DNA of 64,000 nucleotides from Mobula hypostoma (taxonomy: Eukaryota), in contig NC_086097.1 in assembly GCF_963921235.1 (NCBI RefSeq), positions 47,368,001-47,432,000 on the forward strand, written 5' to 3'. This document shows, one piece after another, positions 4,377-41,534 of this stretch. A program made the translations under genes and the position numbers. A model generated the notes under the pieces. It was not told the origin of the DNA. It saw nothing but the letters and a program-made list of their open reading frames with translations, and ran no database searches. Position 1 is the first letter of the stretch. Each line of letters starts with the position of its first letter.

Positions 4377-5723
4377 TTAATATTCCCACTCATCTGTTTT
4401 CATGTCTAGGTAATTAAGAATATTCTGTGCAAACTTCACTGCTTGTTTTCTGTCAGCCTTAGCACCATCATTCCCTTGGGTTTCCACAGCATCAAGTGCT
4501 AGAAGTTGTTTTGTGAGCATTTCTTCCAGTCTCACATAATTCTTGTCAGTTCTAGCTCCATCAAAAGACAGGACTTGCCTCTGAAATTCGGACAAGTGAC
4601 TTAGGACCCCCCATATAGCTTTCTGTGATGGATGTTCATCTTCCAGCTCTTCCTTCATGTTATCTCTCTTTTCAAGAATCTCCTTCAGGTCAAGATAAGC
4701 GATCACAGCCTGCACGTCAACTACAGATCTTCTCCTAGCTTCACGGATACATGGATTTTTGTTAATGTCTACTTGATCCAATTCTGAGAGAAGACTTTGC
4801 AGTTCAGTATGTGGCTTGAAATGCAAATCAAAAGCATGGTCCTGTCGCAAGAGCTGATGTTTTAATTGTGTTGTCTTCAGACGTATTTCTTCGATACGTT
4901 TGATAGACTGATTCTGGGTTAAGTCATAACGTCCTGAAGACTCTCCCTCGGATTCCATCTCCAAATGTCCCAGTAAGCAATTGATCTCATGCACCACACG
5001 TTTCCTGTAGTTTCTTACTTCCGAGTGTCCAGCCACATCTATTGCATCCAATTGCATTAACAATCCAGTGAGGACTCGGGATAAGTGTGCACAATTTTCC
5101 ATGGCATTTAGGCTTATTAACAGGCCAATTACATCACATCTTGCTTTGCTAACTTCAAATAAAACAGAATTGATTTTAGAAACAGAAGGATGTGTATTTG
5201 TGGATAGAGGTAAACTTAATGCTTGCTGACCAATGCAGTTTTCAATGATATCCTGGACAGCACAAATTCTTGTTAGTGCTCGATATCTGGCTTTCCTCAA
5301 ACCAATTTTCCCTCCTGTTTTTACTTGCGTCAGCTGAAAAATTATTTCTTGGATGTGATCAGCAAACTCTTCAGTTATCAAGCCCCCAGCAGAAGATAAT
5401 TCCCTGGTAACCAGCCGCTGTGCATCACCAAAGATACTTTCCACTCTTAGCCGTGATGGGTGAGTTGCAGCTTGCTCCAGCTCTTTCAATAGCTCCTCCA
5501 CAGTTTTTATGGCATTTTTGCGACCATTCTGAATTTCTGACTTGCTGTCTGTATCTACTGCATCTAACTCAAATAGCAACTTGGTCAACAAGCTCTCCAA
5601 CTGCTTATATTCTTTATCAGCCTGCGTACCACTGAATGATAATACAAGTTGTTTAGCTTCTTGTAGTTCCTTCTGAATTTCTTGAACCTTAATCAAAGAT
5701 GGATGTTGTTGACCCATGTTCAT
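4377..5723 (-). CDS. BAG5: BAG family molecular chaperone regulator 5 (multi-BAG-domain Hsp70 co-chaperone), single coding exon, 448 aa
   Basis: Intact ORF MNMGQQHPSL...LDMKTDEWEY with repeated BAG-domain motifs (LTKLLFELDAVDT, LMQLDAIDV, LSELDQVDI, LTKQLLALDAVET). N- and C-termini match vertebrate BAG5 from memory. Likely acceptor ttattattgcctctAG (minus) puts the exon start at 5820. Confidence 0.97.
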   Translation of the reverse strand: MNMGQQHPSLIKVQEIQKELQEAKQLVLSFSGTQADKEYKQLESLLTKLLFELDAVDTDSKSEIQNGRKNAIKTVEELLKELEQAATHPSRLRVESIFGDAQRLVTRELSSAGGLITEEFADHIQEIIFQLTQVKTGGKIGLRKARYRALTRICAVQDIIENCIGQQALSLPLSTNTHPSVSKINSVLFEVSKARCDVIGLLISLNAMENCAHLSRVLTGLLMQLDAIDVAGHSEVRNYRKRVVHEINCLLGHLEMESEGESSGRYDLTQNQSIKRIEEIRLKTTQLKHQLLRQDHAFDLHFKPHTELQSLLSELDQVDINKNPCIREARRRSVVDVQAVIAYLDLKEILEKRDNMKEELEDEHPSQKAIWGVLSHLSEFQRQVLSFDGARTDKNYVRLEEMLTKQLLALDAVETQGNDGAKADRKQAVKFAQNILNYLDMKTDEWEY

Positions 5724-6090
5724 ATTTTCTTTTTCCTTAATGAATCACAGTAATTTAAAAATTGAATGAAAATATGCTGGTCAGCATGTCACTTCTTGGC
5801 AGCATATTGCAACTTTAATTCTAGAGGCAATAATAAATATTGTTAAATGTTAGCAAGGTTGGCATTTTATACCAGTTGAAACCAAGCTCTGTAGTGAGCT
5901 TGCGACTAACTGCAAAATCTGTCTCAATGTAATACATAGATGAAAATGAAACTGTAAGGCTTTCATTGTTATTAATCAGCTTAATCTGCTTGGAGATTAT
6001 GCTTCACAAACATAAGAACTTTAATAAAAACTGAAGTATTGCTTGCATTAAAATACTATTAACATTAAGTTTAGACAAGTTTAAACAGAA

Positions 6091-19210: not shown

Positions 19211-19421
19211 AAACAACAGGAATTCTGCAGATGCTGGATATTCAAGCAACACACATCAAAGTTGCTGGTGAACGCAGCAGGCCAGGCAGCATCTCTAGGA
19301 AGAGGTGCAGTCGACATTTCAGGCCGAGACCCTTCATCAGGACTAACGTTAGTCCTGATGAAGGGTCTCAGCCTGAAACGTCGACTGCACCTCTTCCTAG
19401 AGATGCTGCCTGACCTGCTGT
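19211..19421. mobile_element. Inverted pair of Penelope-like terminal repeats with two hammerhead motifs, inserted in the LTR of element A
   Basis: Near-perfect palindrome centred at 19347/19348. Hammerhead cores at 19309-19344 (minus) and 19351-19386 (plus). Absent from the sister LTR. Confidence 0.8.
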
Positions 19422-19570
19422 NNNNNNNNNNNNNNNNNNNNNNNNNNNNNNNNNNNNNNNNNNNNNNNNNNNNNNNNNNNNNNNNNNNNNNNNNNNNNNN
19501 NNNNNNNNNNNNNNNNNNNNNNNNNNNNNNNNNNNNNNNNNNNNNNNNNNNNNNNNNNNNNNNNNNNNNN
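19422..19570. other. Assembly gap (149 N)
   Basis: Run of N. Confidence 0.99.
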
Positions 19571-22500
19571 GGCACTCCAGGATCCCCTCACAGGACAAGT
19601 ATAAACCTCAAAATGTTGTAAGGCCAGAATAAGTGCCAATAACTCCTTTTCAACAGTTGAATAATTCTTCTGGTTCATGTTAAATTTCCTTGAGAAATAA
19701 GCTACTGGGTGTTCAATATCGTCCGCACCCTTCTGTAACAGTACTGCCCCAGCAGCTTCGTCACTAGCGTCTGTTGCTATCGAGAATGGTTTTGAAAAAT
19801 CCGTTGCTTTGAGCACAGGATGATAACACAGGATGGTTTTCAAATGTTCAAATGCCTCCTGGCAAAGGTCATTCCATACAAATCTTTCACTCTTCCCGAG
19901 GAGTTTTGTTAGGGGGAGAGCAATGTCAGCAAAGTTCTTACAAAATTTTCTATAATATCCAACCATCCCTAAAAACCTTCTCAAAGCTCTCTTGCCAGTT
20001 GGAACAGGAACTTCAGCAATAGCTTGAACCTTGGCCTGTACAGGAGCCAGCTGGCCTTGGCCCACCACATAACCCAGATATGTGACTGTGGCATGGCCAA
20101 ACTCACTTTTAGCGAGGTTCACCCTAAGATTGGCCTTAGAAAGTCTGTCAAACAGTTTTTCTACCGCTACAATATGTTCTTCCCACATGTCACTCCAGAC
20201 CACTAAGTCATCAATTTAAGCCCCTGTGTTTTCTAACCCTCTAATCACCGAATTGATCATTCTTTGAAATGTCCCTGGTGCACTTTTCATCCCGAAGTGT
20301 AAAACATTGTATTTATACAGTCTAGATGGTGTCACAAATACTGACATCTCCTTAGCCCTCTCTGTTAAAGGAACACCCCAGTATCCTTTTAACAAGTCAA
20401 TCTTTATAAGGCATTTAGTCTTCCCCACTCTATCAATACAGTCATCCATTCTCTCTCTTTGTTCTTTCTTGTTTCTAATTTCTTCAACCATTTTACTTTT
20501 CTCAAAGTTCACTCTGTGAAGATGCCATTTCATAGGCTGGGCTGAATTCATAATGACATGATGCACTGCACCTGTGCACCATTTCAAAACACCAATTAGT
20601 CCTTTTACTTGTTTTTTTGGTTTTGGGTCCAACTGATGGACCTTATCAGTAATATTTTTCAAAACAATGGAATTCTGACATCTGGGTGAGTCTAGGTTCA
20701 TGGGTAAACATGTTTTTCCATTCCACTATCAGATTTCACGACTCCATCTTGTTCCATAACAATTCTCCCAGCTGCAATTCTAGCAAACGAGTGTCTTATT
20801 TTGACTCCACCATTTTGTAAACTTTCCTTGGCAAAGTCACAAAGCCTACTAAATCCCTTCCAGCGTTCTCTGAGTAGGGTCAAAGGTCCTTTTGGCCTGT
20901 AACTGAATACAAGTTCCAACAACCTACCCTTCACTGCCTTCTGAATCAAATCTCCAACAATAAATAAGAAGAGGGGAACCTCCTCGTTCCAATTTTCTCC
21001 AATTCTCACACCATAATGTGCTTTAATCATGGTTCTAAGAGTTGAGTTGAGCTGTTCCAAAGCTCCCTTGGACCCTGTGTTATATGTAGATGACATCATG
21101 TGCTTAGCTTCCAGTTCTCTAACTATCCCCTGGAATGTTCCTGAAGTAAAGTTACTGCCCTGGTCAAATTGAATTTCTCTGGGCAGACCTACCAGTGTGT
21201 AAAACTTACTGAATGCTGTTACCACCGTCTTGGCCTCCGTATTTTCAAAAGACATTGCTTCAGGGGACCTACTGATAACCAATGGGCCCACACAATTCAC
21301 TACATCCTTCCTTAACCTAGGCCAGTAAAATTCCTTCACAACCCTGTTCACTGTCTTTCTCACTCCATGATTTCCATCTAAAGGCATACTGTAAGCCATA
21401 TTTAAAATTTCAGCCCTGTAACCTTTCAAAACCACCACGTGACTTGCAGGCACAGTGGCTGGTCTCCATTTCCTCATCAACACCCTATCTTTAAGATAAT
21501 ATTCTGCTGACTCTCTCTGAACCTCCTCTCCTGTGAGAGCTACCTCCTTTAATGCCACCATTTCAGAATCTTGCTTCTGTTCCTCTATACATTCCTTCCT
21601 CAATAAAGACAAACCTTTCTTATACACCTTACCCTTATCAGCTGTACTACCGTCTTAGTCCTGCTGAAATCTGGAAGGTAGGAAAGTCTGTGACACATCA
21701 TAATAATTTAAACCTCTGGTTCTGCCATAGGCCTCAACAGGCTGCTTACTCATCAGCTGAACAGCCTTATCCATCAGCTGAATTGCTGAAACACTCTTAT
21801 CTTGGAGAGCTGTCAACATGCCTCCATTGTTTATTAAATTCAGCACCATCATCAGGCTGATCAGAATCATGTATACATTATGAAAGAAACCAAATAAACT
21901 ACCCATCTGATTATGACCTATGCTTCGACTTGCTTCCACAGCAACTTCCACTCCAAAACCATAATAGTTTTCTTCCTTCTCCATAACATTACACTGCCTA
22001 ACATTATGACCTTGCAGGTGCTCAAATGTCCAAACAAAATTCAACAAACTAGCACATCTTTTCTCAGCGCGCCTTTGTCCTGCAAGCAGGGTCAAAGGTC
22101 ACGCAACCAATCCAACCTTTTCCAGCACTTTACCCAAAAGTCCAGGAACAGCACTTTTGCCATTATTTTCAACAACACTGACCTCACCAATTTTCACCTC
22201 TCCACCAACCTTTAAAACACAGTCTAATAGCAATGACTGAGAATCCTTCCATTCCACTGGTACCAAAGTTAACCCCTTATTCACTGAACCAAGATCATCT
22301 GACACAAAAACTGCATTCCTTTCCAACCAAGTCAGACACTTCAGACTTCAACTGAGCCTCAGCCTAAGGTTTAGAATCCTGTGAACTCACAGGTACTTCA
22401 ACAACCTGAACACGTTCAGTCGGAACAACTGCCTCTTCTAGGCTGTCATCACTTGTCCCAGTTTCAAATTCAAGGTCTTCCCGAACCTCCCAGCTATTCG

Positions 22501-24469
22501 CTGGCAAACTCTTTTCTGGAGTAAACTCAACCTTGTGGGTTAAAACTTCTTCGTGTGCTTTCCTATCAGACCCCCTCAGGGTAGTGGCATCCTGTGCAAC
22601 TGGGTATGCCCCTACCTCATCAGGAACACAACTTTTAAATTCATCACGCAAGACTAGCCCTTCCGAGCTGTAAAAATCATCAGGGTCCGACTCTAAACCT
22701 CTTTGCTGCAACCTCTCTCTTTTAAACTGTCTCTGCCTTTCTGCCACATGGTCTTCACGTTGCCATTTCTCCCTCTCAAGCGGTCTGTGTCTTTCTGCCT
22801 CTTCTCTCTGTCTTTCTGCCTTTCTAGCCTCACGGACCCTCCTCTTTTCTGCTTCAACAGCCTCGAGCTGTATTAAATCCAATTTCAGTTTCGACTGAGC
22901 TTCAGCCTCAGCATGTACCTTACTTTAAGCAAATAACTCTAACGCTTCTTCCTCAAACGTTCCCTTAGCTACATAATGCTGGGCTACTGACATATGTATC
23001 TGAATTTTCCTCATTTTAGTGGTCACCTTTGAGCAATTCCCCACAGCACAACCCTCGTAGCATTATCCAACGCTTCCGGGGTTGGTTCCAACATAAACTC
23101 CTCAACACTAACGTCCATTTCTGCTGTATTTCCACACAACCAAAACAAAAGGAAATTTCCCCAATCAATTCAAACCAGCCTCCCGACCAATTTGTTCATA
23201 TCGCGGACGCAGGCCCCAATTTTGTCACAAACCCCACGACGGGAATAAAGAACCAGCAGAGATGGAAAACACTTTGGAGTCCAGTATTGCTATAAACTAA
23301 TAATAGTTATTAGTGACTACGCAATACAGTAATATAAATGTAAATAAATCAAACAGGTTAGCAGTGATTTTATATATATATATGTATGTGTCTATGTATA
23401 TGTGTGTGTATATATATGTAAATCAGTAAGTGTGGAAATATATGTATGAAAAACCAAGCTTCTTTAAGTCTAGGGGTAAAAAGATACAGTCTTACGATGA
23501 TGAGCAAAGTTCGGTTCAGTTCAGTTCGTGGTATTTAGTTGAGTAGCGATGGGGGGAGAGAGAGAGAGAGAGAGAGATTTGAGTCTTCAGGTGAGCTGAT
23601 GCCAATCTTCTCGTCATTCTCCGAAATCCTTCACAAGTCACCGACTGTGACTTTAACAAGGGGGACCGGTTTTCCCGTGTTGGAGCTATCACCCCGGCAA
23701 GGGTGGACACATAGACAGCTCCCCACCAGTCAACCCCTTCTCCTTCTTCCACTGCAAGAGCAATTGGATCGATCCTCCAAAACCCACTTTCTCTGCGGGC
23801 ACAACAATGCTCATTCAGTGTCTAGATCATGTGTCTGAGGTCTGTATCATCTGACCTCCTGTTTATCTCACTGCGCTGAGCATCACCTGCCATTCAGAGT
23901 CCCTTCTTCCTTTGTCTGTGAGGACATGCAAGCAAGCAGAGCTGTCCTTGAAAGTAACATCAAAAATGTGCTGTTGGTCACCATAGCAACCTTCGAGCTG
24001 CTTGGTGCTATCTCCAAAGTAGAAATCCAAAGTTACCTCCCGTGCCCTAATGGGTCAGTCCAACCATTAATCTTCCTCTCTCTCTCTCTCTCTCTTCAAA
24101 ACAAACCATCGGTGATAAATAACTCTCTCTTCAAACAGTTATTAGGGGCACTCCAGGATCCCCTCACAGACTATATGGTTAGTAGAGAATGAAAACATAA
24201 AAGAAAAGGTGCTAGTAATCTTATTAAACGGTCATGTGCACGCAAAGTTGAAGCTCACGCAATTCAACAGTTCTTCTTCCACCATCGATCTCCTCCTTTG
24301 GACCCCCGCTTGGATTCCCCTCTGGTCGGGCGGCCCACCGATTCACTCAAGTCACATCTCCTCTCTTCATTCCCCTCGCGCCTTCTGGCAAAACCCCAAA
24401 ACCAACAGCTTTCAGACACACAAGAAAGAATAACATTTCCCCCATTGAATAGTCACCCATTATCTCTAG

Positions 24470-25110
24470 TTTAGATTAGATTAGATTATGAGGATGCGCA
24501 GTCCTCTTTTATTGTCATTTAGTAATGCATGCATTAAGAAATGATACGATGTTTTTCCAGAATGATATCACAGAAGCACATGACAAACCGACTTAAAAAA
24601 CTAACAAAAACCACATGATTATAACATATAGTTACAACAGTGCAAAGCAATACCGTAATTTGATAAGAACAGACCCTGGCACGGTAAAAGTCTCAAAGTC
24701 TTTCGAAAGTCCCATATCTCACGCGGACAGTGAACCTCCAGTGCTGCCAACTTGCCAATGCAGCATACTGGAAGCATCTGACCACAGTCTGACTCCAAGT
24801 CCGTCCGAAAACTTTGAGCCTCCGACCAGCTGTCCGACACCGAGCACCATCTCTGCTGAGCGCTTCGGCCCTGGCAACAGGCAATAGGCAAAGCTGAGGA
24901 TTTGGGGCCTTCCCCTCCGGAGATTCTCAATCGCACAGTAGCAGCGGCAGCAAAGCGGGCATTTCAGAAGTTACTCCAGATGTTCCTCCGTGCTTCTCAC
25001 AGCTGTCTCCATCAAATCCAGATTGTGCACGGCCCCCTAGTTAACACATATCGATATCAATTTGGAACGGCCGCGCGTGCTGCGTCCCGCCACCATCTTC
25101 TTCTCCCTCC
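24470..25110 (-). mobile_element. Non-coding short retroelement with (TCTAA)n tail, inserted in LTR B
   Basis: ttagattagattagatt tail plus polyA signal on one end, GC-rich aagatggtggcgggacgcagcacgcgcggcc head on the other, no credible ORF. Confidence 0.6.
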
Positions 25111-26316
25111 TATAACCCAAACATTGCTGCTACAGAGAAACCATTACCTCATCAGTTAACATTACAGAGAAACCATTACATTCTCTCCCCACTGAATTAA
25201 GTCATGCCCTCATGACGAGATAATTCGCCAACCCTTCCTGCAAAACACAAAGCCCAATCCAGGTGCAGAATGCAGTGACATAGCTCCCCAAAACAGTAGA
25301 GATCACGCCCTGTTCCCCAGGCGCTACATAGGCCAACTTATCCAGTGGTCTCCTAATTCTCTGAGACCTCCGTACCTGCTCACCTAACTCTTCAGACTCA
25401 GACGCTACCGGGGGTACTTCGGGTCTGCTTGCTGAGTCCTCCCCCGATCTATCACTCTTGCCCCCCTGCATCTCGGAGCCCTCTGTCCCGTGCCCAGGCC
25501 CCGCTTTCTCTCCTTCAGTGTCCTGCTGTAACCACGCTGCCCATAGCTAGCCCACTTCACTTCACCTGACTCAGTGGGAGAAGGGCCAGGGGTCTCTTCC
25601 TTAATCAATGGGGAGTTAGTGAAGGGCAGCATGTATCACACATCCAGATCATCATCCTTGGAATCAGTATCCCTGTCATGGGCGGGGCCCAGCCCAGCGT
25701 CTGCCTCTGTGGGCCCTGCAGTCGCCCCGTGTTTTCGCAGAGTCCTCTTACTAGGTGTAGGCTCCAAGTCGGACTCTTGGTCTACCTGCACCTCTTGTCC
25801 CAGGGGCAACAGGTAGTTCCGATGGAGAATCTTGACAGGCCCCTTCTCCTCCTCTGGTCTCGCCCGGAAAACCAGTAGGTTTGGCATCTGACTCTTTACC
25901 ACATAGGGTGTGGCCACTCAGCGGTCAGCCAACTTGTGCTTTCCTGGTCGTCCCAAATTCCTTATGAGGATTTGGTCTCCCAGCAGGAGTTGGGAGAACC
26001 TCACTTTCTGATCATACCTCCTCTTATTCCCTTGATTCTGCTTGGCGGCCGCAACCCCAGCCAATTCATGAGCCCTTTTCAGCTCTCTCCTCATATCAGA
26101 CACGTACTTCAGATAAAGCTTCAGTGGTAAGTCACCCGCGTTAGTCCCAAAACAAAGGTCAATGGGCAACCTTGCCTCACGCCCAAACATCGGATAATAT
26201 GGCGAGTACCCAGTAACTTCATTTCATGTACACTTGTAACAGTGAAACACATGCCCAATATGTTGATTCCACCTGCTCTTCTTGCTGATCTCCATGGTCC
26301 CGAGCATGTCTAGCAA

Positions 26317-26659
26317 CTACTACTACTACGTCGACTCAGGCCTAGGGGGCCGGCGTCGGGCACGATGACGGACTCTCCACTTCTCCCTCTCCCTCATCAG
26401 TGTGTTCAGTTCATCTACATTAGCTGCGCCGCTGTCTTCTAGGAGTGTGTTGACCATAGTCTTGTGAGGGCGCCCATGGTTCATCCTCCCGTGCTTGGGC
26501 TCCCGTTTGATGACTAGGTAGGCAGGCAGGTAGCCCGGGGTGGCATAGATAGTGCCCCGCTAGTTGCAGTCTTCTCACCTCGATTTTAGTGGTGAGCTTC
26601 TGTAGCCTGTTATAGAGCTCGATGTTCGTCATGTGCTGTTGCCAACTCACGTCAAGAGC
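26317..26659 (-). mobile_element. 5'-truncated RTE-clade LINE with (TAG)n tail and 12-bp TSD, inserted in the integrase of element B
   Basis: TSD catgtctagcaa at 26305-26316 and 26660-26671. Encodes VSWQQHMTNIELY...RRLQLAGH, typical of the RTE C-terminus. Confidence 0.85.
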
Positions 26660-27619
26660 CATGTCTAGCAAGGTCTGATGAAACCTTTCAGGCTGGGGAT
26701 CTCCCTGTGAGTGATAGGGCGTGGTCCTCGATTTCTCAACTCCCAGCATGCCCAGTAACTCATAGATGAGTCTGCTCTCGAAGTCCCGTCCCTGGTCACT
26801 ATGTATCCACCTGGGAAGGCCATAATGAATGGAATACTTCTCCCATAATACTTTTGCCACCATAGACGCCCTCTGGTCCCTGGTAGGAAAAGCCTGAGTA
26901 TATCTGGTGTAGTGGTCTATGATGACTAAGACATTCGCCGTGTTGCTGGCATTGGGTTCTATGGACAGGAAATCCATACACACCAGGTCCAGGGGCAAAT
27001 GGGACAAAGGAGCTGCCTGTGTAGGCAGTGTCTTCCGGCGTATGCAGCGAATGCACAACTTGCAGTATTCTTCAACCTCAGACTTCATTCGGGGCCAGTA
27101 AAACTGATCATTGAGCAAACCATAGGTCTTTTCCACCCCCAAATGTCCAGAAACATCATGAAGTAACTTCGACGCAATCCTCCGATACTTCTCGGGCAGA
27201 ACCAGCTGGCAACGCTGAGGTCGGTCCGGGGGTGACGTGACCCGGTATAAGATCTGGTTCTTCAACTCCAACTGAGGTCATTCTTTCAGTAATGGAGGCA
27301 CCAAAGCGTGTTTCATCTTCTCCACCTGAACCATGTCTCCCTTTTCAGCCGCAGACCAAATGGTGCCAATGCCCGGGTCACTAGATCAAGTAGCACCTGT
27401 GAAGCAGAAAATTATTACGTTTACGACCTTACATTAGAATGGGCCTCCCATTTCTAATTATTACAGAAAAAGCCAGTTATAGGACACAGTTAGATTCCAT
27501 ATTCAATCCTGAAGGCTGCAAAATGGCTGGACAAAAGATGAAATGTCGTTCCTTAGGCTCACATGGGATTCTTAGGAACAATTTAGGAAGCTGAAGACAT
27601 GGAGGTCAGAGTGGGAATG

Positions 27620-29050: not shown

Positions 29051-29114
29051 GAAAAAGAAGAGTTTATACACTCATGCTTACGAGCAAAGGGATTGGGATT
29101 AAGAGATGAAGAAG
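29051..29114 (+). CDS. COA8: COA8 exon 3 (64 nt)
   Basis: ttttAAG acceptor; EKEEFIHSCLRAKGLGLRDEE-G; donor G|GTGAGT, phase 1. Confidence 0.94.
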
Positions 29115-29231
29115 GTGAGTAAATTATTTCTTTTGAATTTTGATTTCAAATGTTAAAGATCAAATTGTAAAAGACATTTTATGGTTCAACAAAATTGTGT
29201 AGAAATTCTGTTTTGGAAATTTATGGGCATA

Positions 29232-30766
29232 CAGTGCCTTGAAAAAGTATTCAGCCCTGACTTTTTGCATATTACTGTCTCATTTCTCAATTTAAATATA
29301 TATTGATTTTAAGCTAAACTACAAAACCTTGTGCATCATGTCAAATCAAAAGAAAAATTCCAAAACTTGTCAATAATTTACTAAAAATTAAAAACCAAAA
29401 TGATGAGGATGAAAAAGTATTCATCCCCTTTGTAATTACTATGCTAACTTTCCTCAGGTGCAATATATTACATTACCACCTCACCCAAATTGTTGATGTA
29501 GAAAATTGGAGGATCACCTTTTTTCAATGAACTCAGTAGAATAAATACCTGCTCTCTCTGTAAGGTAGATTTTCAACAGACAAAACCAAAATGAAGACAA
29601 AAGAGCATGCAAGACAAGTTTGTGAAATGATTATAGAGAAGCACAAACCTGGGGAAGTGTACAAAACCATTTTAAAAACACTGAATATACTGCAGAGCTC
29701 AGTGCAGTCCATTATGAAAAAGTGGAGGAAAAATGGTCAGAACACCCCTCTAAACTTAGTCACCGGAGAAGAATGGCACTTGTAAGAGAAGTAACTGTGA
29801 CTCCAGTAATCACTCTGAGTGAGCTGCAGCAGTCATTGGCTGACCTGGAGATGAAATTCATGGCTCCACAGAAAGGGTATATGGAAGAGTGGCAAGGAAG
29901 AAGCCCTGGCTTAAAAAAAACATATTATTGCTCATAAAAACTGCAAAGCATCACTTAAAAGATACTGTGAAAATGTGGAAGAAAGACTTGTGGTCAGATA
30001 AGACTAAAGTGGAAATTCTTGGCCTCAACATAAGCAGTATGTGTGGTGTAAATTTAATACTGTGCATCAGCCAAGTAACACCATCCCTGCTGTAAAGTAT
30101 GGTGAATGTAGCGTCCTGCTATGGGGTTGCTTTTCAGCTGCAGGAACTGCAAATCTGATCAGGATTGATCGGAAGTTGAATGCTGCTAAATACAGATAGG
30201 TCCTGGATAAAAACCTGCTAGTCTCTGCCAAAAAGCTTAAAGTGGGGAGGAAGTTCTTGTTTCAGCTGGACAACGATCTGAAGCACACTGCCAGAGCAAC
30301 CGTGAATGAAGAAAATTGATGTTCATGATTGGCCTAGTCAGAGTACTGACCTTAATCTAACTGAACATCTCTGGCAAGACCTCAAGATTGCTGTCATCAC
30401 TGCTCTCCAATTAACCTGGCACAGCTTGAGCAATTCTGCAAAGAGAAATGGGCAAATCTTGCTCCATCACGTTTTGTGAAGCTAATAGAGACTTATCCAA
30501 AAAGACTACTCTCTGTAATAGCTGAGAGAGGCAGTTCAACTAAGAATTGAGCAAATACTTCTGAACTGGTGATATATCAGGTTTTGAATTTTTAGGTTTT
30601 CATGCTTTACAGTTTTCCCTGTCTTTTTGAGCTCTACTGTGGGGGTGGGGTGGGGAAAGAAGCATGTAATTCACAAATAAAAATTCTCAGTTAAATTGAT
30701 CAATATCTCTGGTTGTAATACTCATGTGAACAAAGTTTGGAAGCTGAATTCTTTTACAAGGCACTG
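29232..30766 (+). mobile_element. Tc1-family DNA transposon, transposase pseudogene
   Basis: TA|cagtgccttgaaaaagtattcagc ... gctgaattcttttacaaggcactg|TA. Relics [24 protein letters not shown]. Confidence 0.92.
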
Positions 30767-30936
30767 TATCTTAGAAGTTCGCTCACTTGGATAGTTTGTA
30801 TCTATTGGTTTGAAGGTTGGGAATCACCTGATGACATGTGCTCCTGGCTGAAGGCTACGGTTACCTTATAAGATAACTAGAGAACGCACCCTAACAGGTG
30901 TATGTAACAAATAATTTCTGGTTTGTACCAGTGGCT

Positions 30937-31079
30937 TCCAGGAAAGACTGGATGGTAGCCGAGCCGAGGAAGGTCGGTGACACTGTAGAGACAGCTGACC
31001 TCCAGGAAAGACTGGATGGTAGCCGAGCCGAGGAAGGTCGGTGACACTGTAGAGACAGCTGACCTCCAGGAAAGACTGG
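30937..31079 (+). repeat. 64-bp tandem repeat (about 2.2 identical units) in the HERO 5' UTR
   Basis: tccaggaaagactgg... units start at 30937, 31001 and 31065. Confidence 0.92.
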
Positions 31080-34000
31080 CACGGGCTCACAACGCTAGCA
31101 ACCTTGTGGGCAGCACTCGCAAAAGGGCACCACTCAAGCTACGACTGAACACGAAGAGCAGTACCCCCAGAGTCTCCCTAGAGGGGGGGAGGATGAGAGA
31201 CTCAACAGGATGGTGGTACCAGCAACGGCCAGGACAGGAAACACGAGGAAGCTAAAGCGAACAACACTGACCGGAGAGGAATTCACGGTAACGTGTCATT
31301 GCGGGCAAGTCTGCAAAAACATCAGAGGGCTCGAGATACACCAGAGCAAGTCTAGATGTGGATCAATGGTGACCCAAGTGCAGCGCACGGACTTAGTGTC
31401 CGGTGAGACGAAGGAGAATTCCAGCCAGGAAGCACCCCACAGAGCTGAAGATCTCTCCGCACTTGAGTCGCCTCAGCACCGAACAACAGACCTAACGAGT
31501 TCCTCTTCGGTTACCCCAATCCATTCATCAAGGAAAGACAGGATCAAATGGCCTAGATTGTCAGACAACGTCGCCTGGATGCAGTTCGATGATGATCTAG
31601 ATGGCATCCTGGAAGTTGCCTTAGCAGGTCCAGTACACAGAAAGATCGACTCACTCACAGCCATAGCGTACAATCTAGCTAAGGAACGATTTGGCCCAAT
31701 GGAGCGGAGAAGCTAGCTGGAGTTACTGCGGCAACCAAATAGGAGGGAAATGGAGATTTGTCGCTTGAGAGGCGAATTAAAGGCGCTCAACAAGAGGTTT
31801 AAAACCAGCCCACTGGCTGAAAAAGAAGGTATCAAGGACTTAACCAGTATGCTGCGGGAAAAGCTGTGCAAACTCCGGAGGGCGGAACATCTGTGACAGC
31901 AAAGAAGGAAGAAAGAGAAAGGGCGAGTGCAGTTTGTGAGAGATCCATTCAGCTTCAACAGGACTCTTCTCGGCCAACAAAAATCTGGTATACTATCCAG
32001 CTCAAAGCCAGAGGTAGAGGAGTTCCTGCGGGAGGCACACAGTGACCCACGGAGGGGTCAGGGACTAGGAACCAGTTGGGCTGTGCGTAGACCAAAAAAT
32101 CCATCAATTGAGCTGAATGTGAAGGAGCCTACATGGCAGGAAATCCAGGACATCATCCGGAAAGCTAAAGCATCAGCTGCCCCAGGCCCAAGCAGCATAC
32201 CTTATAAGGTGTATAAGAAATGCCCGATACTTCTTTGGAGGCTGTGGAAGGTCATGAGAAAGATCTGGGCCAAAGGTACTATTCCATCAAGTTGGAAATT
32301 GGCAGAGGGTTGCTTTATTCCAAAGGAAGAGGTTTCTTCCACAATTGCCCAGTTTCAGACAATTTCTCTCCTGGATGTGGAATGTAAGATTTTCTTTTCT
32401 GTGCTCGCAAGAAGGCTGACTTCTTACGTGATGCAGAACTGCTATATCAACACATCCGTCCAGAAAGGCAGTATTCCAGGCTTTTCGGGGTGTCTGGAAC
32501 ACACCTCAATGATTAGCCATTTGATCCGTGAGGCCAAGCAGAAAAATGGTGACCTAACAGTTGTCTGGTTAGACCTCGCGAACACCTACGGGTCTATTCC
32601 ACGTGACCTCATCCTAGAAGGACTTGATCACTACTACATCCCAGTGGCTATTTGAGACATGATCACCAGCTACCTAGGAGGATTCAAACTCAGATTTACA
32701 TCAGCCCATTTCACAACTAGTTGGCAGGACCTCCAGAAGGGGATTCCAACAGGGTGCACCATCTCCCCCATTCTATTTATTATGGGAATGAATTATCAGC
32801 AGCAGAAAATGTAACCCGCAGCCCCACGCTGGAGTTGGGTATTGTTCAGCCGGCTCTACGAGGGTTCATGGACGACATCACTATAACAACCGTGTCATAT
32901 GTCCAAGCAAGATGGGTATTGGAAACCCTGGACAATGTAGCCACTTGGGCGAGGATGTCCTTCAAGGCCAAGAAGTCCATGTGTATGGTGATCAGAAAGG
33001 GCAAAGTTACTAGCAAGTTTAGCCTCCAAGTTCAGGGTGAGGTCATCCCTTCCCTGAACATAACCTGATAAAATGCTTGGGGAAAAGTGGTTTAATATGT
33101 CACTGACAGATGGGGCCAATGTCACCAATGCTGTGAAGCAGGCAGACAAATGGTTGAAGAAGATCGACAAATCCGGACTTCCGGGTAAATTCAAGACCTG
33201 GCTGTACCAATACGGCATTCTGCCCAGGCTTCTCTGGCTCTTCACACTTTATGAGTTCCCCATGACTGTCGTAGAGGGCATCAAGAGGAGAACCAACAAA
33301 CATCTGCGGAGATGGTTGGGAGTTCCCTCAAGCTTCTCTTTAGTGGGCCTCTACATTTGTTCTGGGCAACTGCAGCTTCCCCTGTCATTTGTGTGGAGGA
33401 ATTCAAGGTGGCAAAATGCGGAGCCTTATTAAGCTTGAGAGATTCCAATGATGTCTTGGTAAAGCAAACAGGCGTTACAACCAGATCTGGGCGCAAGTGG
33501 GCAGCCAACGCAGCTGTGGAGGAGGCAGTGTGTTCTCTGAAGCTGCGACATATCATTGGCAACCCCTGCGTCGGGTGGCAAGGCCTCAGCTCAGTTCACT
33601 TCCAGAAGTGGGGAAACGTAAGCATAAGGAACAGGCGAGACATGATACAGGCAGAAGTACAGATCCGTGAGGAAGAGAAGCGGATTTCAAAGGCAGTGGA
33701 ACAGGGGTCCCAGGGTGCCTGGATAAAATAGGATCTGCCTAAGCGCAAGATCTCATGGGCAGAGTTATGAAGACGGGAGCCCTTCCATATTTCCTTCCTC
33801 TTGCGATCCGTGTATGACACCCTTCCTTCACCATTACATCTGTACACATGGGGGATGAGGGAGGACCCGAACTGTAAGCTCTGTGGTCAGAAGGGGACAC
33901 TGGCTCATATACTGTCTGGGTGTAAAACAGCTCTAACTCAAGGACGGTATAGCTGGCACCATGATAAGATGCTTCTGGCTCTTGCTAACACACTAGAGCG

Positions 34001-34572
34001 GGAGAGATGCAAGAAGAGGACAGCTGGCACAGATTTGAGGAAGGCCATCACCTTCATCAAAGAGGGAGCCAGGCCTTCCGTAACCAAACAACCAAAGCCC
34101 AAACTGTTGCTAACGGCCAGGTCCTGGAAGATGAGGGTCGATGTGGGAAGGAGATTGCAGTTCCCAGATGTGGTGCACACAACCCTATGCCCGGACATTG
34201 TACTGTGGTCAACCGAAGACAAGAAAATAATTCTGGTTGGGCTGACTGTGCTGTGGGAGGAGGGATGGGAAGAGGCCCATGAGAGAAAGGCCTTGAAGTA
34301 CCAGCCCTTGGTGCAGGAGTGTAAAGACAAGGGATGGCAGGCATGGTTGTTCCCTGTGGAGATTGGCTGCAGAGGTTTCCCAGCCAAATCAGCATGGTGG
34401 TTGTTGTCAGATCTGGGCCTGGACAAAAGGAGCGAAAAACAAGCAGCTTGTAGGATGGGGGAAGAGGCAGAACGAGCCTCTTGTTGGATTTAGAGTAGGC
34501 GAGAGGAGGGAAGCTGGAAGCCAGGAGCAGATGGGCAGTGATTTGGCCACCACTGCTGGCCAACCAACTGGA

Positions 34573-34632
34573 GAGTGTCATGGTTAAGGGTCGAGACACT
34601 CGGTGAAGGTTGGGAACCACCTGATGACATCT
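34573..34632 (+). ncRNA. Candidate rearranged hammerhead ribozyme in the HERO 3' UTR (degenerate in this copy)
   Basis: GAGUG-UC^AUGGUU ... GAGA-CACUC ... AACCAC-CUGAUGA. Stems I and III pair, but GAAA reads GAGA and the 1.1 and 10.1 pairs are mismatched. Confidence 0.45.
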
Positions 34633-35126
34633 GCTCCTGGCTGAAGGCTACGGTTACCTTATAAGGTAACTGGAGAATGCACCCGAACAGGTGTATATAA
34701 CAAGAGAGATTTATTCCTTAAATGTATCTTTTGTTGCCATATCATGTTTTAAAAATTGTGTTAGGTTTATTTTAATTTTTGTGGAAATTCCACTGTGAAG
34801 GATGGGAAGTATGGAACACTGTGACATCTTTGAAGGTAATGTACAATATAAAAGACAATGGTTCAGTTGAGCAACTAATAGAGGATGAACCACATTATCA
34901 TATCAAATTTGGAAACCTTTTTTTGGAAGTGTGCAGATTATTTAAATTCTTACATTCATGAGATAAACACTTGGACATTTACTGTAACTTGGGCTATACT
35001 TGTTATTAGATAATCTGATAGTTATATATTACATATATTAATATAGTACATTAATATATGCGGAGGATTAATTGCATTCTTTTTGTTAGTGTGCATTTTG
35101 ATAAGATAAACCTCAATTAATTTCGC

Positions 35127-36220: not shown

Positions 36221-38559
36221 TACATTTTTTTTTACTTTTTGTAGCTTTGCAAAATACAGAAGTATTAACCTTTTAACAATTGATTTTAATTTTTGAATTT
36301 TATATACTTTTTTAAACTTTCTATATAATTTACACTTTCCATATTTATTGCAAATCTCCCAAGCATTATTCTCAAATGCTATTATTTGTACAGGAGCATC
36401 TTTAGTGAATATTTTGCTTTGTTTCTGTCAAGCAGAGCAATTTTATTCCTCCATCAAGCATCAGGAACGTTAGCACATCAGTTGGGAATTTTCAACACCA
36501 TTATCACCAATATTATGTTCCACTGTACAAATCAATTTCTCCTTTATAAGGAATTTACACAGGAAATAAATGAAATGTAAATCTAATTTAAATATTTCAG
36601 TTGTAACAATTCATCATAATTCAGCTTTGTTATGGTTAGGTTTTAAAACTGTATAATCCATCCTTTAAGTCTTTACAAAATAGACTACTGTTTGTGTTTT
36701 AATAATATGGAAAATTTGTATCAAATCTAATTTTGACTTGTGAGAACTTTGTACCTTGTGGCAAGAAGAACATGGTTGTATATTACAGTGCAATAATAAC
36801 TCGTCCATCATGTCTTTGCCAGCTGTACAGCTGAAGCTATTTGATTTTATCTCTCTATCCTTTCCTTGTATCCATGTATGTTCCTCCTTTCTAAAGCTGT
36901 CTAATTCATGTTATAAAGGCATCAATCACCTAGTTAAGCAGTGTTTATTCTAATAATAATCTGAGGAATAATTTTAGTTTGTTTTAATTTTCAATTGTGA
37001 CACCTTTTCCATTAAATGTTTATTTTTCTATCATGATGAGATAGTCATAGTCATACTTTATTGATCCCGGGGGAAATTGGTTTTCGTTACAGTTGCACCA
37101 TAAGTAATAAATAGTAATAAAACCATAAATAGTTAAATAGTAATATGTAAATTGTGCCAGGAAATAAGTCCAGGACCAGCCTATTGGCTCAGGGTGTCTG
37201 ACCCTCCAAGGGAGGAGTTGTAAAGTTTGATGGCCACAGGCAGGAATGACTTCCTATGGCGCTCTGTGTTGCATCTCAGTGGAATGAGTCTCTGGCTGAA
37301 TGTACTCCTGTGCCCACCCAGTACATTATGTAGTGGATGGGAGACATTGACCAAAATGGCATGCAACTTGGACAGCATCCTCTTTTCAGACACACCATCA
37401 GAGAGTCCAGTTCCATCCCCAGGACATCACTGGCCTTACAAATGAGTTTGTTGATTCTGTTAGTGTCTGCTACCCTCAGCCTGCTGTCCCAGCACACAAC
37501 AGCAAACATGATAGCACTGGCCATCACAGACTTGTAGAACATCCTCAGCATCGTCCGACAGATGTTAAAGGACCTCAGTCTCCTCAGGAAATAGAGACGG
37601 CTCTGACCCTTCTTGTTGTTACGAGAATACACATAAAATTAAGATGTTTGCTGGCCTGGGCTAGCATCAGTGGCATCAGCAGTTGGTCTGCCACCTGCCC
37701 TCAGGGGAAGGAGAGATAAGGAACAATGGAGCAGCGTCTGGAGATGTGTAATGAAGGGATGTGGGAGAGAGAGCTGTCTGGAGCGGCTCCCCCCTTTGAA
37801 CCCTGAACTGTTTGAAGTGATGGACAGGCGATACCCCAGCAGGGGGATAAAAAGGGACAGGTTCGCTAAGACAGACACACACGCCACCCGAGGTAACGAG
37901 ACCCTGGAAGCGGTGCGCCTCTCACGAGTGGTGAGAAGTACCGGACAACGCACCAGGGTGGAAAGGTACGATCAGCGGGAACCCGGTGTGTGTCCGCCCT
38001 TGCCTGGGTGCCGGGTTCACTGCAGAGGATCGACCGCATCTGGAGGAGGGGTCACAGTCGGTGACCTCAGGTGACATCACCAAGGACCCGCCCAAATGCT
38101 GTTTGTGAGCCATCTTGCTGGTCTGTGACTGAAGCCGTTCTGAATGATCAGTTGTTCCTGTTCTCTCTGTCTCTCTTCCCCCACCTTGTCCATCGCCATG
38201 GCAACGATTACTGCGAACTGAACTTTGAGTCATTTTGAAATTGGTCATTTACCCCTAGACAACGATAGAGCTTGATTGATGCTGTTATCTTAATTCTGTG
38301 CACATGTGTGGTTATCATTGTTGAATTGTTGCATTTATTATCCTTTCGATTACTGTGTTGCTTGTTTCTTTAATAAAACTTTCTTAGTTCTAGTACTCCA
38401 GACTCCAACTGAGTGATCCATTTCTGCTGGTTTGGCAACCCAGTTACGGGGTACGTAACATAAGTGGGGTTCTCATCCGCGATTTTGAACGCTAAATTTG
38501 GGACGGAGTAAATTGATTGGGTTAAAATTCCCGAAAGAAAGAAAAGACAAACAGCAGAA

Positions 38560-40851
38560 ATGGAGGTTGAGGAATTTATAAAGGCGCCGACCTTGGAGGC
38601 ATTAGAGGATGCCAGGAAATCGGAATTGATAGCTGTGGCCAAACGGGTGAATCTTGCTAAGGTGAAGTCGACAATGAGGAGAGAGGAGATACACAGAGCT
38701 ATTGTAGAGCACTATGTATCTAAAGGTGTGTTTCCCCAAGGTGAGCTGGGGGTGGTGTCTATTGAAAAACCTGCTGGAGACGCGGTACAGGTACAGCTTG
38801 AAAAACTGAGACTCGAGCACGAGTTCCGGGTACGGCAGTTAGAACACGAAGAGAAGCAGTTAGAAAGGCAGGAGAAAGAGAGAGAGTTAGAAAGGCGGGA
38901 GAAAGAGAGAGAGTTAGAAAGGCGGGAGAAAGAGAGAGAGTTAGAAAGGCGGGAGAAAGAGAGAGAGTTAGAAAGGCGGGAGAGAGAGAAAGAGTTAGAA
39001 AGGCGGGAGAGAGAGAAAGAGGTAGAAAGGCAAGAGAGAGAGAAAGAGGTAGAAAGGCAAGAGAGAGAAAGACAGTTGGAGAGAGAGGAGAAACAGAGGG
39101 AAAGGGAATTTGAGCTGGAGAAGTTAAAGATAAGGGCCGAGCAGGGGCTCGTGCCGAACCAAGGTGGAGGGTTCCGGGCGACCCAGGAGGTTAGGCTGGT
39201 TCCCCCATTTGACGATACCGATGTGGATCGGTACTTTCTCCACTTCGAAAAGGTGGCTATAAGTCAGGAATGGCCGAGGGATAAGTGGGTTGTTTTACTT
39301 CAGAGTGTACTGAAAGGGAAGGCCCAACAAGCTTACTCCGCTTTATCCGCGGAAGATGCCCAGAAGTATGAGGTGGTGAAGGAGGCCATCCTCAGGATTT
39401 ATGAGTTGGTCCCGGAGGCATACCGGCAGAGGTTCCGGAATGCGAGGAAGCGGTGGGACCGCACGTATTTGGAGTTTGCTCGCGAGATGCAAACATATTG
39501 TGAGCGTTGGTGCGCCTCGAAGGGGGTAGAGGGGGATTATGACAGACTGCTGCAGCTGATTCTGTTTGAGCAGTTTAAAGGTTGTGTCCCTGAGGGTATG
39601 AGACCCTACCTCGATGAGAAAGAGGCAGCCACGTTAGCCGCAACTGCTAAGTTAGCGGATGAGTATGCGTTGACGCATAAAATGAAGTTTGCCCCGAGTA
39701 AAGGCTACCAGAAGGGTAGTCAGGACGGAGGGGAGAGTCCGCCGGAAAAGTCAGAAAGTAAGCCGGGGACTAGTGAAAAGGATAAGGTAGACCGGGAGCA
39801 GTCTGGTAGGAAGTCTCCTGGGGTCGTCTGTTATAATTGTGGGAAAGTCGGACACTTTGCGTCCAGGTGCTTTGCCCCAAGGAAGGAGACGGGGAAAGGA
39901 AAAGCGGAAATTTTGAATGGCTGTATCGAGCTGTTAAGCGAACCGCTAGGGAAGGACAGGTCTGAAAAAGTCCAGGAAGGGCGCGAGAGGTTTATCTCGG
40001 CCGGACTGGTGTCAGTGAAGGAGAGGTTAAAACCAGTTCCAGTGCGGATCTGGAGAGACACGGGAGCGTGTCAGTCACTAATACTGAAGAGTGTATTAGA
40101 GTTTAGCTCAGAGACCCAGACTGGGGAGGTAGAGGTCAAAGGTGTTGGGGAAGGGACAGAGTCAGTCCCTTTGCACCAGATACACTTACAGAGCAACCTG
40201 GTCACTGGACTAGTCACGATCGGGGTGAGGTCCGAATTACCGATGAAAGACGTGGAAGTCTTGCTCGGTAATGACATCGCCGGAGGAATCGTGTTCCCAG
40301 TCGTGAGATTGACGGGTCAGCCTGCCAGCATGGAGGCCCCGCCCGCGATGGTGAATTTGGCTGAAACATTTCTGCCAACCTTGTATGAGACAGGGTGTAG
40401 TGAGATAAGAGGTAGTGAGGGAGCTGGGACGGACGTAGCAGTAGCCAGGAAAGAATTTGTGCAGACGCAGGAGCGAGACGAGGGGCTGATGGTTTTTGCC
40501 GAGACCGCTCTCTCTGACACAGCCTTGACAAGCTATTGTGCGGAGGAGGAAGTGCTAAGGAAGAAAGGGAAATCAAGTACAGTACCCGCAGATGAGGAAT
40601 GGGGGGTGGTGCAAAAGAGTTATGGGGATGAGGTTTTTAACATGGCCCACGAGGTACCCCCCGGTGGACATTTTGCGGTGCTGGAGGAAACAGTTGGTGG
40701 AATCATGAAAGAGAGTTACCGGCTGCCCAGGGGGAAAAATGTTATTGATCATGACCGACGCGAACTGAGACGGTCACCGGCTTTTGATATGCTAACAAAC
40801 CTAGTCGGTGTTAGCGTAGGGTGGAAATCAATGAAGCTAGGGGCCCCTTGA
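38560..40851 (+). CDS. Retrotransposon Gag (SCAN-like capsid, CCHC knuckle) plus aspartic protease, running into an integrase relic; 763 aa
   Basis: PEAYRQRFR...LILFEQF capsid region, CYNCGKVGHFASRC, RDTGA protease motif, AHEVPPGGHF integrase relic; no internal stops. Confidence 0.85.
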   Translation: MEVEEFIKAPTLEALEDARKSELIAVAKRVNLAKVKSTMRREEIHRAIVEHYVSKGVFPQGELGVVSIEKPAGDAVQVQLEKLRLEHEFRVRQLEHEEKQLERQEKERELERREKERELERREKERELERREKERELERREREKELERREREKEVERQEREKEVERQERERQLEREEKQREREFELEKLKIRAEQGLVPNQGGGFRATQEVRLVPPFDDTDVDRYFLHFEKVAISQEWPRDKWVVLLQSVLKGKAQQAYSALSAEDAQKYEVVKEAILRIYELVPEAYRQRFRNARKRWDRTYLEFAREMQTYCERWCASKGVEGDYDRLLQLILFEQFKGCVPEGMRPYLDEKEAATLAATAKLADEYALTHKMKFAPSKGYQKGSQDGGESPPEKSESKPGTSEKDKVDREQSGRKSPGVVCYNCGKVGHFASRCFAPRKETGKGKAEILNGCIELLSEPLGKDRSEKVQEGRERFISAGLVSVKERLKPVPVRIWRDTGACQSLILKSVLEFSSETQTGEVEVKGVGEGTESVPLHQIHLQSNLVTGLVTIGVRSELPMKDVEVLLGNDIAGGIVFPVVRLTGQPASMEAPPAMVNLAETFLPTLYETGCSEIRGSEGAGTDVAVARKEFVQTQERDEGLMVFAETALSDTALTSYCAEEEVLRKKGKSSTVPADEEWGVVQKSYGDEVFNMAHEVPPGGHFAVLEETVGGIMKESYRLPRGKNVIDHDRRELRRSPAFDMLTNLVGVSVGWKSMKLGAP
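38857..39090 (+). repeat. 27/30-bp coding tandem repeat (ELERREKER)n in gag
   Basis: About 8 units of gagttagaaaggcgggagaaagagaga and variants. Confidence 0.92.
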
Positions 40852-41534
40852 TAAGAGAAAAAAACCATTTTGAAAAGATTAGGATGGGATCGGTCAGATG
40901 GGAGAAGGCTATTGTTTTGGCCAGGTCTACTGATAAGGTCTCTCCCTTAATCCCCGAAGGAGTAATTAAACGACTCGCACCCATGTGTTTGATTGTCCCG
41001 AGGAAATGCAAAGAACTGGGACGTTGGGTGATTGTGGTTACAATAGGGCAGCCAAGCAAACAACACCCATATTTTTCGAGTAATTCAGTGACTAAAGGGC
41101 TGATGAACACAGAGGTGTGTATTGGCAATTTAATACGGCTGTCTGAAGCCAGCTTGATAGTGAACCTTGAAAAAAATGAATTCGGCCACACGAAGGTCAC
41201 TTACCTGGGAATTGTGGTGACACAGGGGCAGCTGGCAGTGATGCAAGCTACAGTGCAGGCTATCGCTGACCTCCCAACCCCGACAGACAAGAGGGCCCTC
41301 AGAAGGCTTTTGGAGATGGTGGGGTACTGCAGGAAGTTTTGCAATAACTCTGCGGTCAATACCCGTCCCCCTCCTACTAAGCCCTTGCGAGAGAAAACTA
41401 AGTCGGAATGGGACGACCCTTGTTGTTGTGGTCCGGGACAAAACCAGATGAGAGGTTACATTGGTCGCAATTCATCAGTGTTTTTGGCCACTATGAAGTT
41501 TGCTGAGTTGGAGCCGGGTCTAAGGGATTATTAA
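40821..41534 (+). pseudogene. Deleted RT relic of element C
   Basis: Retains VNLEKNEFGHTKVTYLG...RRLLEMVGYCRKFC but lacks the YxDD motif and RNase H. Confidence 0.75.

Follow-up and report, generated by a model that had tools for sequence, protein, structure and literature searches.

A partial head-to-tail tandem at the locus

We analyzed a 64,000-nucleotide (nt) stretch of the 3.5-Gb genome of Mobula hypostoma (assembly GCF_963921235.1, contig NC_086097.1, positions 47,368,001 to 47,432,000 of the forward strand), which is called the window here and numbered from its first base. It holds a long interspersed nuclear element (LINE), a retrotransposon lacking long terminal repeats (LTRs), that is directly preceded by a copy of its own 3' end. 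We refer to the element proper as the unit, to the extra copy as the 3' piece, and to the presumed syntheses of the two as the first and second pass, respectively. The following parts include the untranslated regions (UTRs) and an open reading frame (ORF) with a reverse transcriptase (RT) domain.

30811..30911, + strand: upstream 3' piece (pseudo-LTR), read as a second-pass copy of the last ~100 nt; begins 25 nt after the predicted ribozyme cut
30905..30920, + strand: head-to-tail junction, in its family form ..AACAAG joined to TAAT..
30912..31080, + strand: 5' UTR with four short hairpins bearing GAAAGA-type loops
31099..34541, + strand: single ORF, interrupted by stop codons and frameshifts, that runs from an N-terminal Cys motif through an RT and a CCHC knuckle to a restriction-like endonuclease (RLE)
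34604..34704, + strand: 3' end of the element, without poly(A); first-pass end ..TAACAAG, often with short re-start repeats

Judged by its motifs, the window element is a decayed LINE with a single ORF for an RT, a zinc knuckle, and an RLE. Fragments of the ORF match RVT_1 and zf-RVT weakly. The RT fragment has 313 longer homologues, the named ones coming from fish, lancelets, and molluscs at 47 to 81% identity, and a profile of 26 homologues finds R2 proteins as its best PDB match (E value of 1e-46). A CCHC knuckle followed by PD..E..K endonuclease motifs lies at the C terminus of both homologue P0008 and the window ORF (33771-34493), and the family stop codon, a TGA, was placed at 34539-34541 from the reading frame and the ends of homologues. 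Copies across the family share a common 3' end and are truncated to varying extents at the 5' end; their flanks are unrelated, and the dispersed insertions show no fixed multicopy target site. The element has neither the GIY-YIG endonuclease nor the telomerase-like RT of Penelope elements. It also differs from LTR retrotransposons: the repeats vary in length, target-site duplications (TSDs) are absent, and domain scans gave no integrase or RNase H domain. The assignment of the family to HERO is putative, a label carried over from the initial annotation of this stretch; no named HERO sequence occurs among the homologues of the RT fragment.

That annotation had described 100-bp direct repeats around the element, and those at 30811-30910 and 34604-34703 do align gap-free, with 93 identities in 100 positions and a spacing of 3793. 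It had also taken the downstream repeat for the element's own 3' end, seen no TSD, and placed the start of the upstream repeat 25 nt past a predicted cut. All three points were borne out: other copies stop at the same 3' terminal base, neither the window copy nor a comparison of family flanks yielded a TSD, and the GUC triplet at the cut lies at 34577-34579. The 7 differences between the repeats are compatible with the age of the family, whose copies each diverge from the majority base by 2.8% at non-CpG positions. Since the cut-site and GAAA blocks of the ribozyme described below are absent from it, the window's upstream piece could not itself cleave.

The 3' piece is a family trait

Two samples of copies were drawn from the host genome. 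The 5'-anchored sample was found with an exact 22-mer lying just inside the 5' end, which has 54 genome matches; the 53 outside the window were taken as 52 regions, one of which holds two matches, and 8 further copies were added. Counts of 5' ends use the 52 regions and the window less three (the older-subfamily copies L135 and L144, which are ~70% identical, and the segmental duplicate L141), giving 50 copies, and the count of junction register (n = 49) takes in the 8 extra copies. The 3'-anchored sample was found with the 3'-terminal 22-mer (507 genome matches); among the first 100 matches listed, 90 were examined (30 loci with 1.5-kb flanks and 60 others), three of which were junctions, leaving 87 3' ends.

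The family inserts as partial head-to-tail tandems, in which most full-length copies consist of a 3' piece and a unit joined at one fixed junction. A piece of 15 to 1,691 nt stands directly before the 5' end in 42 of the 50 copies, and the dropped older-subfamily copies likewise carry one; a single copy combines two junctions with a proper 3' end. Junctions also occur beyond this genome, following the ribozyme motif in 11 of 28 instances from relatives with at least 200 nt downstream. Short-read contigs may collapse copies, yet the junction itself must exist in these relatives. No poly(A) was found in family copies. When TSDs were sought in 42 copies, the best flank match was no longer than in mismatched-flank controls, and the 8- and 11-mer matches that did appear derive from short 3' pieces rather than from flanks.

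The junction differs from the free 3' ends of the family. It is in register in 48 of 49 piece-bearing copies, the sole exception being a short deletion, and no junction carries added bases or repeats, while extra short ..CAAG repeats are present in 30 of the 83 first-pass ends that terminate in CAAG (2 expected). The junction therefore looks copied rather than made by a jump. The flank after the last CAAG is enriched for T (41/83, P = 3e-4) and then for A (20/41, P = 0.011), as if the template might have gone on into UAA.

The 5' limits of the copies are not uniform. Among the 8 copies without a piece, 7 begin at unit positions 1 to 7 and 1 begins at position 16, whereas the second-pass stop rate predicts ~1.3 beginnings within 8 nt and ~3 over the whole 20 nt permitted by the selection. 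The second pass is also shorter than the first: pieces of at least 24 nt have a median length of 212 nt (n = 39), compared with 587 nt for first-pass copies (n = 87; P = 2e-5, with censoring ignored). The predicted ribozyme cut does not bound the pieces. Of the 26 that reach it, 24 pass and only 2 stop there (lengths of 124 and 125), so the start of the window's piece 25 nt beyond the cut is an ordinary truncation; 22 of the 42 pieces include G10.1, and 20 include the whole ribozyme fold. The initial annotation had proposed that a 3'-UTR ribozyme generates the upstream repeat, as in the pseudo-LTRs of Penelope elements. The recurrence of the repeat, the hammerhead, and the Penelope analogy all held up, but the claim that pieces never extend upstream of the GUC failed, with 24 of 42 beginning upstream of it.

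Internal deletions are common among copies. At L123:5610-5730, a large internal deletion has left a third unit with little more than its 5' UTR and, directly attached, the final ~19 nt, so that the 3' end is intact.

A predicted rewired hammerhead in the 3' UTR

The strands of the predicted ribozyme in the window copy, all on the + strand, are as follows.

34520..34533, + strand: closing helix P(-1), 5' strand, which overlaps the last codons; its partner strand, 34628-34641, comes immediately after A9
34534..34557, + strand: hairpin inserted 5' of G10.1; loop palindrome TGGCCA at 34544-34549, a candidate kissing loop
34558..34562, + strand: stem II strand 10.x; G10.1 is 34558; pairs with 34588-34592
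34564..34572, + strand: helix extending stem III and GA of a kink-turn-like motif; the helix pairs with 34608-34613
34573..34585, + strand: block S, with a stem III strand, U16.1 (34578), C17 (34579, predicted cut after it), and a stem I strand
34588..34601, + strand: block G, with 11.x, G12-A13-A14-A15.1, and 15.x
34615..34627, + strand: stem I strand 2.x and CUGAUGA (34621-34627)

From 5' to 3', the P(-1) strand is thus followed by the hairpin, stem II strand 10.x, the helix with its GA, and the cut-site block, and then by the GAAA block, the bulge-GA with the helix partner, the stem I strand with CUGAnGA, and the P(-1) partner. A9 is separated from G10.1 by a helix and a hairpin. The end of stem III is formed by the kink-turn-like motif, whose partner side has a 3-nt bulge and GA at 34602-34606; this label reflects likeness to the kink-turn consensus. 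The predicted cut lies 125 nt from the 3' end of the element.

Relatives were surveyed by scanning metagenome contigs, which gave 68 loci, including 44 units with the ORF C terminus. The alignment comprises the window and 29 instances, with near-duplicates and those cut by contig ends left out. CUGAnGA and GAAA were the selection criterion, and the structure was drawn from the same sequences, so neither is an independent test; U16.1, the NUH triplet, G10.1-C11.1, and the helices lie outside that criterion. Across the 30 sequences, the 32-pair structure is paired in 91% of cells, compared with 66% in shuffles and 38 to 43% in slid controls, and 29 of the 32 pairs show changes on both sides. Stems I, II, and III, which flank the core, are paired in 89 to 94% of cells and show covariation. 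U16.1 is present in 30/30 sequences; the cut triplet conforms to NUH in 31/31, with GUU in 12, GUC in 10, GUA in 6, AUA in 3, and never a G at position 17; and G10.1-C11.1 is kept in 29/31. When halves were exchanged between elements, all 14 core-flanking pairs were satisfied by 1.5% of the combinations, versus 61% of true halves.

The motif GAAA-N(18-30)-CUGAnGA directly follows the ORF in 34 of the 44 units, and in 4 more one core base is changed (L223, L232, L259, and L274). Of the rest, 3 lie on contigs too short to show it, and 3 are distant units without it (L237, L252, and L273). The 3' UTR of one of these distant units contains CTGATGA along with further repeats (L237:3474-3740) and may hold a different ribozyme layout. 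Within the family, all core bases are kept in 20 of 41 units. The core of the window copy is damaged, since A14 reads G (34595) and a G-to-A change at 34580 breaks pair 1.1-2.1. A covariance-model scan of 29000-36500 against Rfam gave no hammerhead family at E values up to 10 and no ribozyme family. Taken together, the covariation upholds the initial annotation's hammerhead with predicted cleavage between 34579 and 34580, and the motif is very probably a working hammerhead.

A canonical stem II following A9 was rejected: its pairing with 11.x is 48%, 29/30 fail at the first pair, and shuffles do equally well. In most cases the stem II partner of 11.x lies instead 20 to 21 nt before the cut. 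Nothing was found in support of a hepatitis delta virus (HDV)-like ribozyme at the junction. No RNA run was listed as holding the element, and four sequencing runs presumed to be RNA consist of contigs, which cannot show RNA ends or circles. A contig starting at the cut site, considered as a sign of cleavage, is explained by an adjacent CpG variant and was seen in a probable DNA run as well.

A script called a 6-nt palindrome at the hairpin loop in 21 of 31 sequences, compared with 14% in shuffles (one call is a stem artifact, and one true case was missed). TGGCCA is present in 38 of 41 family units, and four different loop palindromes occur across the relatives, which are not independent of one another. 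Since the sequence of the palindrome changes and its self-complementarity stays, the loop is a candidate kissing loop. A ViennaRNA fold of the window copy, by a method that cannot show pseudoknots, recovered P(-1), the kink-turn helix, and stem III but paired the palindrome with 10.x, a pairing that is possibly an off state. The ORF stop codon sits inside the inserted hairpin, such that translation could, speculatively, unfold the 5' part of the ribozyme.

Pieces and their own units share variants

If a piece and the unit beside it derive from one template, they should carry the same variants. At common non-CpG variant sites, a piece differs from its own unit at 40 of 157 sites, compared with 47% in shuffled pairs (0/2000 shuffles). 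Rare variants are common to both at 29 of 8,631 sites upstream of the cut and 10 of 3,138 sites downstream of it, ~six times the shuffled rate; for the downstream sites, shuffled pairs give 0.06% (0/300 shuffles), and the downstream segment also shares alleles at site 3759 (P = 0.004). Discordance does not differ between the two sides of the cut (27/108 upstream and 6/30 downstream). Given that variants downstream of the cut are shared as well, one template lineage supplied both piece and unit.

Four-gamete conflict is high among the units, but fine-scale mosaicism was dropped as a trait specific to this family, since a control LINE gave 53 to 59%, compared with 47 to 89% in matched subsamples. 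This control is a second high-copy LINE (window 52900-54300; L340-L368), in which 53 to 59% of site pairs are in four-gamete conflict; hypermutable sites may be the cause, or its copies may have recombined with one another.

A circular template is the favored model

By cutting 125 nt from the 3' end, the ribozyme would ruin its own template if the break were neither resealed nor bridged, yet every insertion spans the cut. A hammerhead in this position makes sense only with a tandem or resealed RNA. We therefore favor a model in which unit-length RNA, cut by the ribozyme, is closed into a circle and reverse transcribed past one turn, and we put its probability at roughly one half. Where a piece holds the whole ribozyme, transcription reading through from the host would yield an RNA that is cut both in the piece and in the unit, releasing a permuted monomer without host flank. 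Its two ends, able to pair via four helices, would be ligated by the ribozyme or by a host ligase, and contact between palindromic loops may join the two ribozymes, or two RNAs. Target-primed reverse transcription would begin at the fixed ..CAAG site and cross the sealed cut. The RT would often halt on meeting its own start after one turn; otherwise, less processive strand displacement would make the piece. Only daughters with a piece longer than ~150 to 180 nt (20 to 22 of the 50) could repeat the cycle. The circle would account for the fixed junction, the seamless passage of the cut, the stops after one turn, the shorter second pass, and the shared variants downstream of the cut.

Several observations weigh against it. 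A single circle predicts almost no differences between piece and unit beyond those due to age, but the two disagree at 42 of 163 common variant sites (26%), compared with 4.8% at other non-CpG sites. One template plus aging is thus insufficient, and two templates, conversion, or hypermutable sites are needed. The re-start repeats at first-pass 3' ends have a simpler reading, that of an RNA with a free 3' end. A preference of the endonuclease could instead underlie the T/TA enrichment, whose continuation to TAA is not significant (9/20, P = 0.12). The pile-up of 5' ends also fits RNAs that simply start there. Piece ends near the cut number 8 versus 3.1 expected (P = 0.014), a weak excess in an interval picked after looking. 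Cleavage, ligation, and the circular RNA are themselves steps that we infer.

Some of these points would fit a linear, terminally redundant RNA in which the upstream ribozyme trims the host flank and the downstream one stays uncut. The RT would reach the cut and then, guided by homology, switch to a 3' UTR, either on the same RNA or on a dimer partner, as in retroviral first-strand transfer. The re-start repeats resemble a free 3' end, two pieces end exactly at the cut, the 26% discordance is about half of the random value, as a two-template model predicts, and the palindromic loop suggests dimers. However, such transfer predicts a strong stop at the cut, which 24 of 26 pieces pass, and separate inheritance of the copies downstream of the cut, which in fact share variants. 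It also leaves the stops at the junction unexplained, and no RNase H family was matched in the element's domain scans. We consider it unlikely, although it survives better than the readings that follow.

A templated junction, pieces that are related but not identical to their units, and the copy with two junctions would equally be expected if tandem master arrays were read through, or if neighboring copies recombined, with the pieces being 5' truncations within an upstream unit. Only 1 adjacent pair was found among the 54 matches of the 5'-end 22-mer, however, and no long array was seen, although the assembly may collapse arrays. An active ribozyme would moreover cut array RNA in every unit, and the raised stop rate after the junction is unexplained, so that we judge this origin improbable. 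Slightly less credit still goes to a unit-length linear RNA on which the RT jumps end to end, as in R2, from the 5' end to the 3' end of the same or another RNA, with the ribozyme serving only in regulation or RNA turnover. Stops at unit positions 1 to 7, the defined 3' end, and a shared lineage with partial discordance agree with such jumps. The absence of added bases or repeats at the junctions, unlike at 30/83 first-pass starts, does not, and jumping assigns no part to a ribozyme that 34 of 44 related units retain. An independent second insertion, whether by targeting of the element's own 5' or 3' end or by chance beside an older truncated copy, as the initial annotation had also suggested, would explain why piece lengths scatter like truncations but is already largely refuted by the private variants common to piece and unit, by piece lengths that differ from first-pass lengths, by the 84% frequency of pieces, and by the finding that truncated copies do not follow 3' ends (among 88 3'-anchored copies, one immediately follows another 3' end, and it is full length).

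The circular template thus remains our preferred reading. The wider combination of a widespread clade of autonomous, protein-coding LINEs that replicates via covalently closed circular RNA, a hammerhead of a seventh wiring (core split between A9 and G10.1, stem III kink-turned), dimers driven by a retrovirus-like palindromic loop within the ribozyme, and an RT that rolls past one turn and switches between two templates is offered tentatively, and we are more inclined to doubt than to accept it as a whole.

Other features of the element and the window

In the 5' UTR, a 64-bp duplication (30932-30995 and 30996-31059) is private to the window copy. The GAAAGA-type loops of the hairpins at 30930-31080 are kept in distant relatives (L213:2506-2635, L216, L243, L247, and L248), and these repeated hairpins are possibly binding sites for the element's protein. 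The RT fragment is 77 to 81% identical to proteins of two teleosts (P0001 and P0013), above all other matches, for which horizontal transfer is a possible source. Many homologues from metagenome and run assemblies lie on contigs of 3.6 to 4.1 kb. This is roughly the length of one unit, which assemblers would be expected to produce on closing the head-to-tail junction.

The neighboring features of the window are as follows.

29229..30769: Tc1/mariner-like element with 27-nt inverted repeats; ends 41 bp before the upstream piece and is unrelated to the tandem
4377..5744, - strand: open frame of 455 amino acids with four BAG-domain matches, which we presume to be a BAG5-like host exon
19400..27277, - strand, and 38512..41531, + strand: regions with Gypsy-type RT, RNase H, and integrase fragments

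A 779-amino-acid frame with SCAN and zinc-knuckle motifs accompanies the Gypsy-type fragments and looks like a SCAN-bearing Gypsy gag.

Relation to known systems and significance

Partial tandem insertions were reportedly described in outline for Zebulon by Bouneau in 2003, and Zebulon is said to be a HERO element. Zebulon reportedly shares with the present family a single ORF, an RT with a C-terminal RLE, dispersed nonspecific insertion, and partial tandems. The loop palindrome resembles the dimerization initiation site of HIV-1, a hairpin with a 7- to 10-nt loop and a 6-nt palindrome kept through sequence change; the dimer is a prediction here. We found no ribozyme or circular template for Zebulon/HERO-type elements in the literature searched, a set that lies apart from the Bouneau text. 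In a partial literature collection outside Repbase Reports, no paper linked these elements to a hammerhead, a kink-turn, or a kissing loop, and none in that collection described such a palindromic loop in non-LTR elements. The partial tandem is thus known in outline, and its link to a hammerhead and a circle was not found in the print searched.

HERO is a mostly nonspecific RLE clade (PMC4640811). For Penelope elements, Cervera and de la Pena (2014; PMC4209133) proposed cleavage, circularization, and reverse transcription of more than a unit, and both these elements and retrozymes resemble the window family in forming partial head-to-tail tandems whose repeated part contains a hammerhead (PMC4209133; bioRxiv 10.64898/2026.07.22.740005). 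Those systems use a GIY-YIG endonuclease, a telomerase-like RT, and minimal type I hammerheads (same sources), whereas the window element has an R2-like RT, an RLE, and a permuted ribozyme. R2 has a related RT and a self-cleaving 5' ribozyme that removes cotranscribed host RNA (PMC13580325) and is of the HDV-like class (PMC4209133). The R2 ribozyme lies at the 5' end of a site-specific element, however, and the hammerhead of the window family lies inside the 3' UTR.

The closest match to the ribozyme is the type SGC hammerhead, of which HRIMA-1 and variants cleave in vitro (Eckert 2023; PMC10085705). Both have the block order site-GAAA-CUGAnGA, crossing stems I to III, a short linker between stems I and II, and a full core with NUH. 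Eckert 2023 assumes that CUGAnGA runs straight into stem II and reports no type SGC RNA in known genomes; here, the two are predicted to be apart, since a helix and a hairpin separate A9 from G10.1, and a kink-turn-like extension caps stem III.

If the ribozyme cleaves, it would break the rule of a contiguous CUGAnGA and stem II (Eckert 2023; PMC10085705) and would mean that animal genomes contain many copies of a non-circularly permuted hammerhead. It would also supply a concrete mechanism, open to testing, by which Zebulon/HERO-type LINEs come to insert as partial tandems. Use of a circular template, a proposal made so far for Penelope elements and retrozymes, would then extend to an R2-related RT. 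From the palindromic loop, RNA dimers are predicted for a LINE. The mechanism would also bear on the origin of terminal repeats in non-LTR elements and on the design of templates for RLE-based gene insertion.

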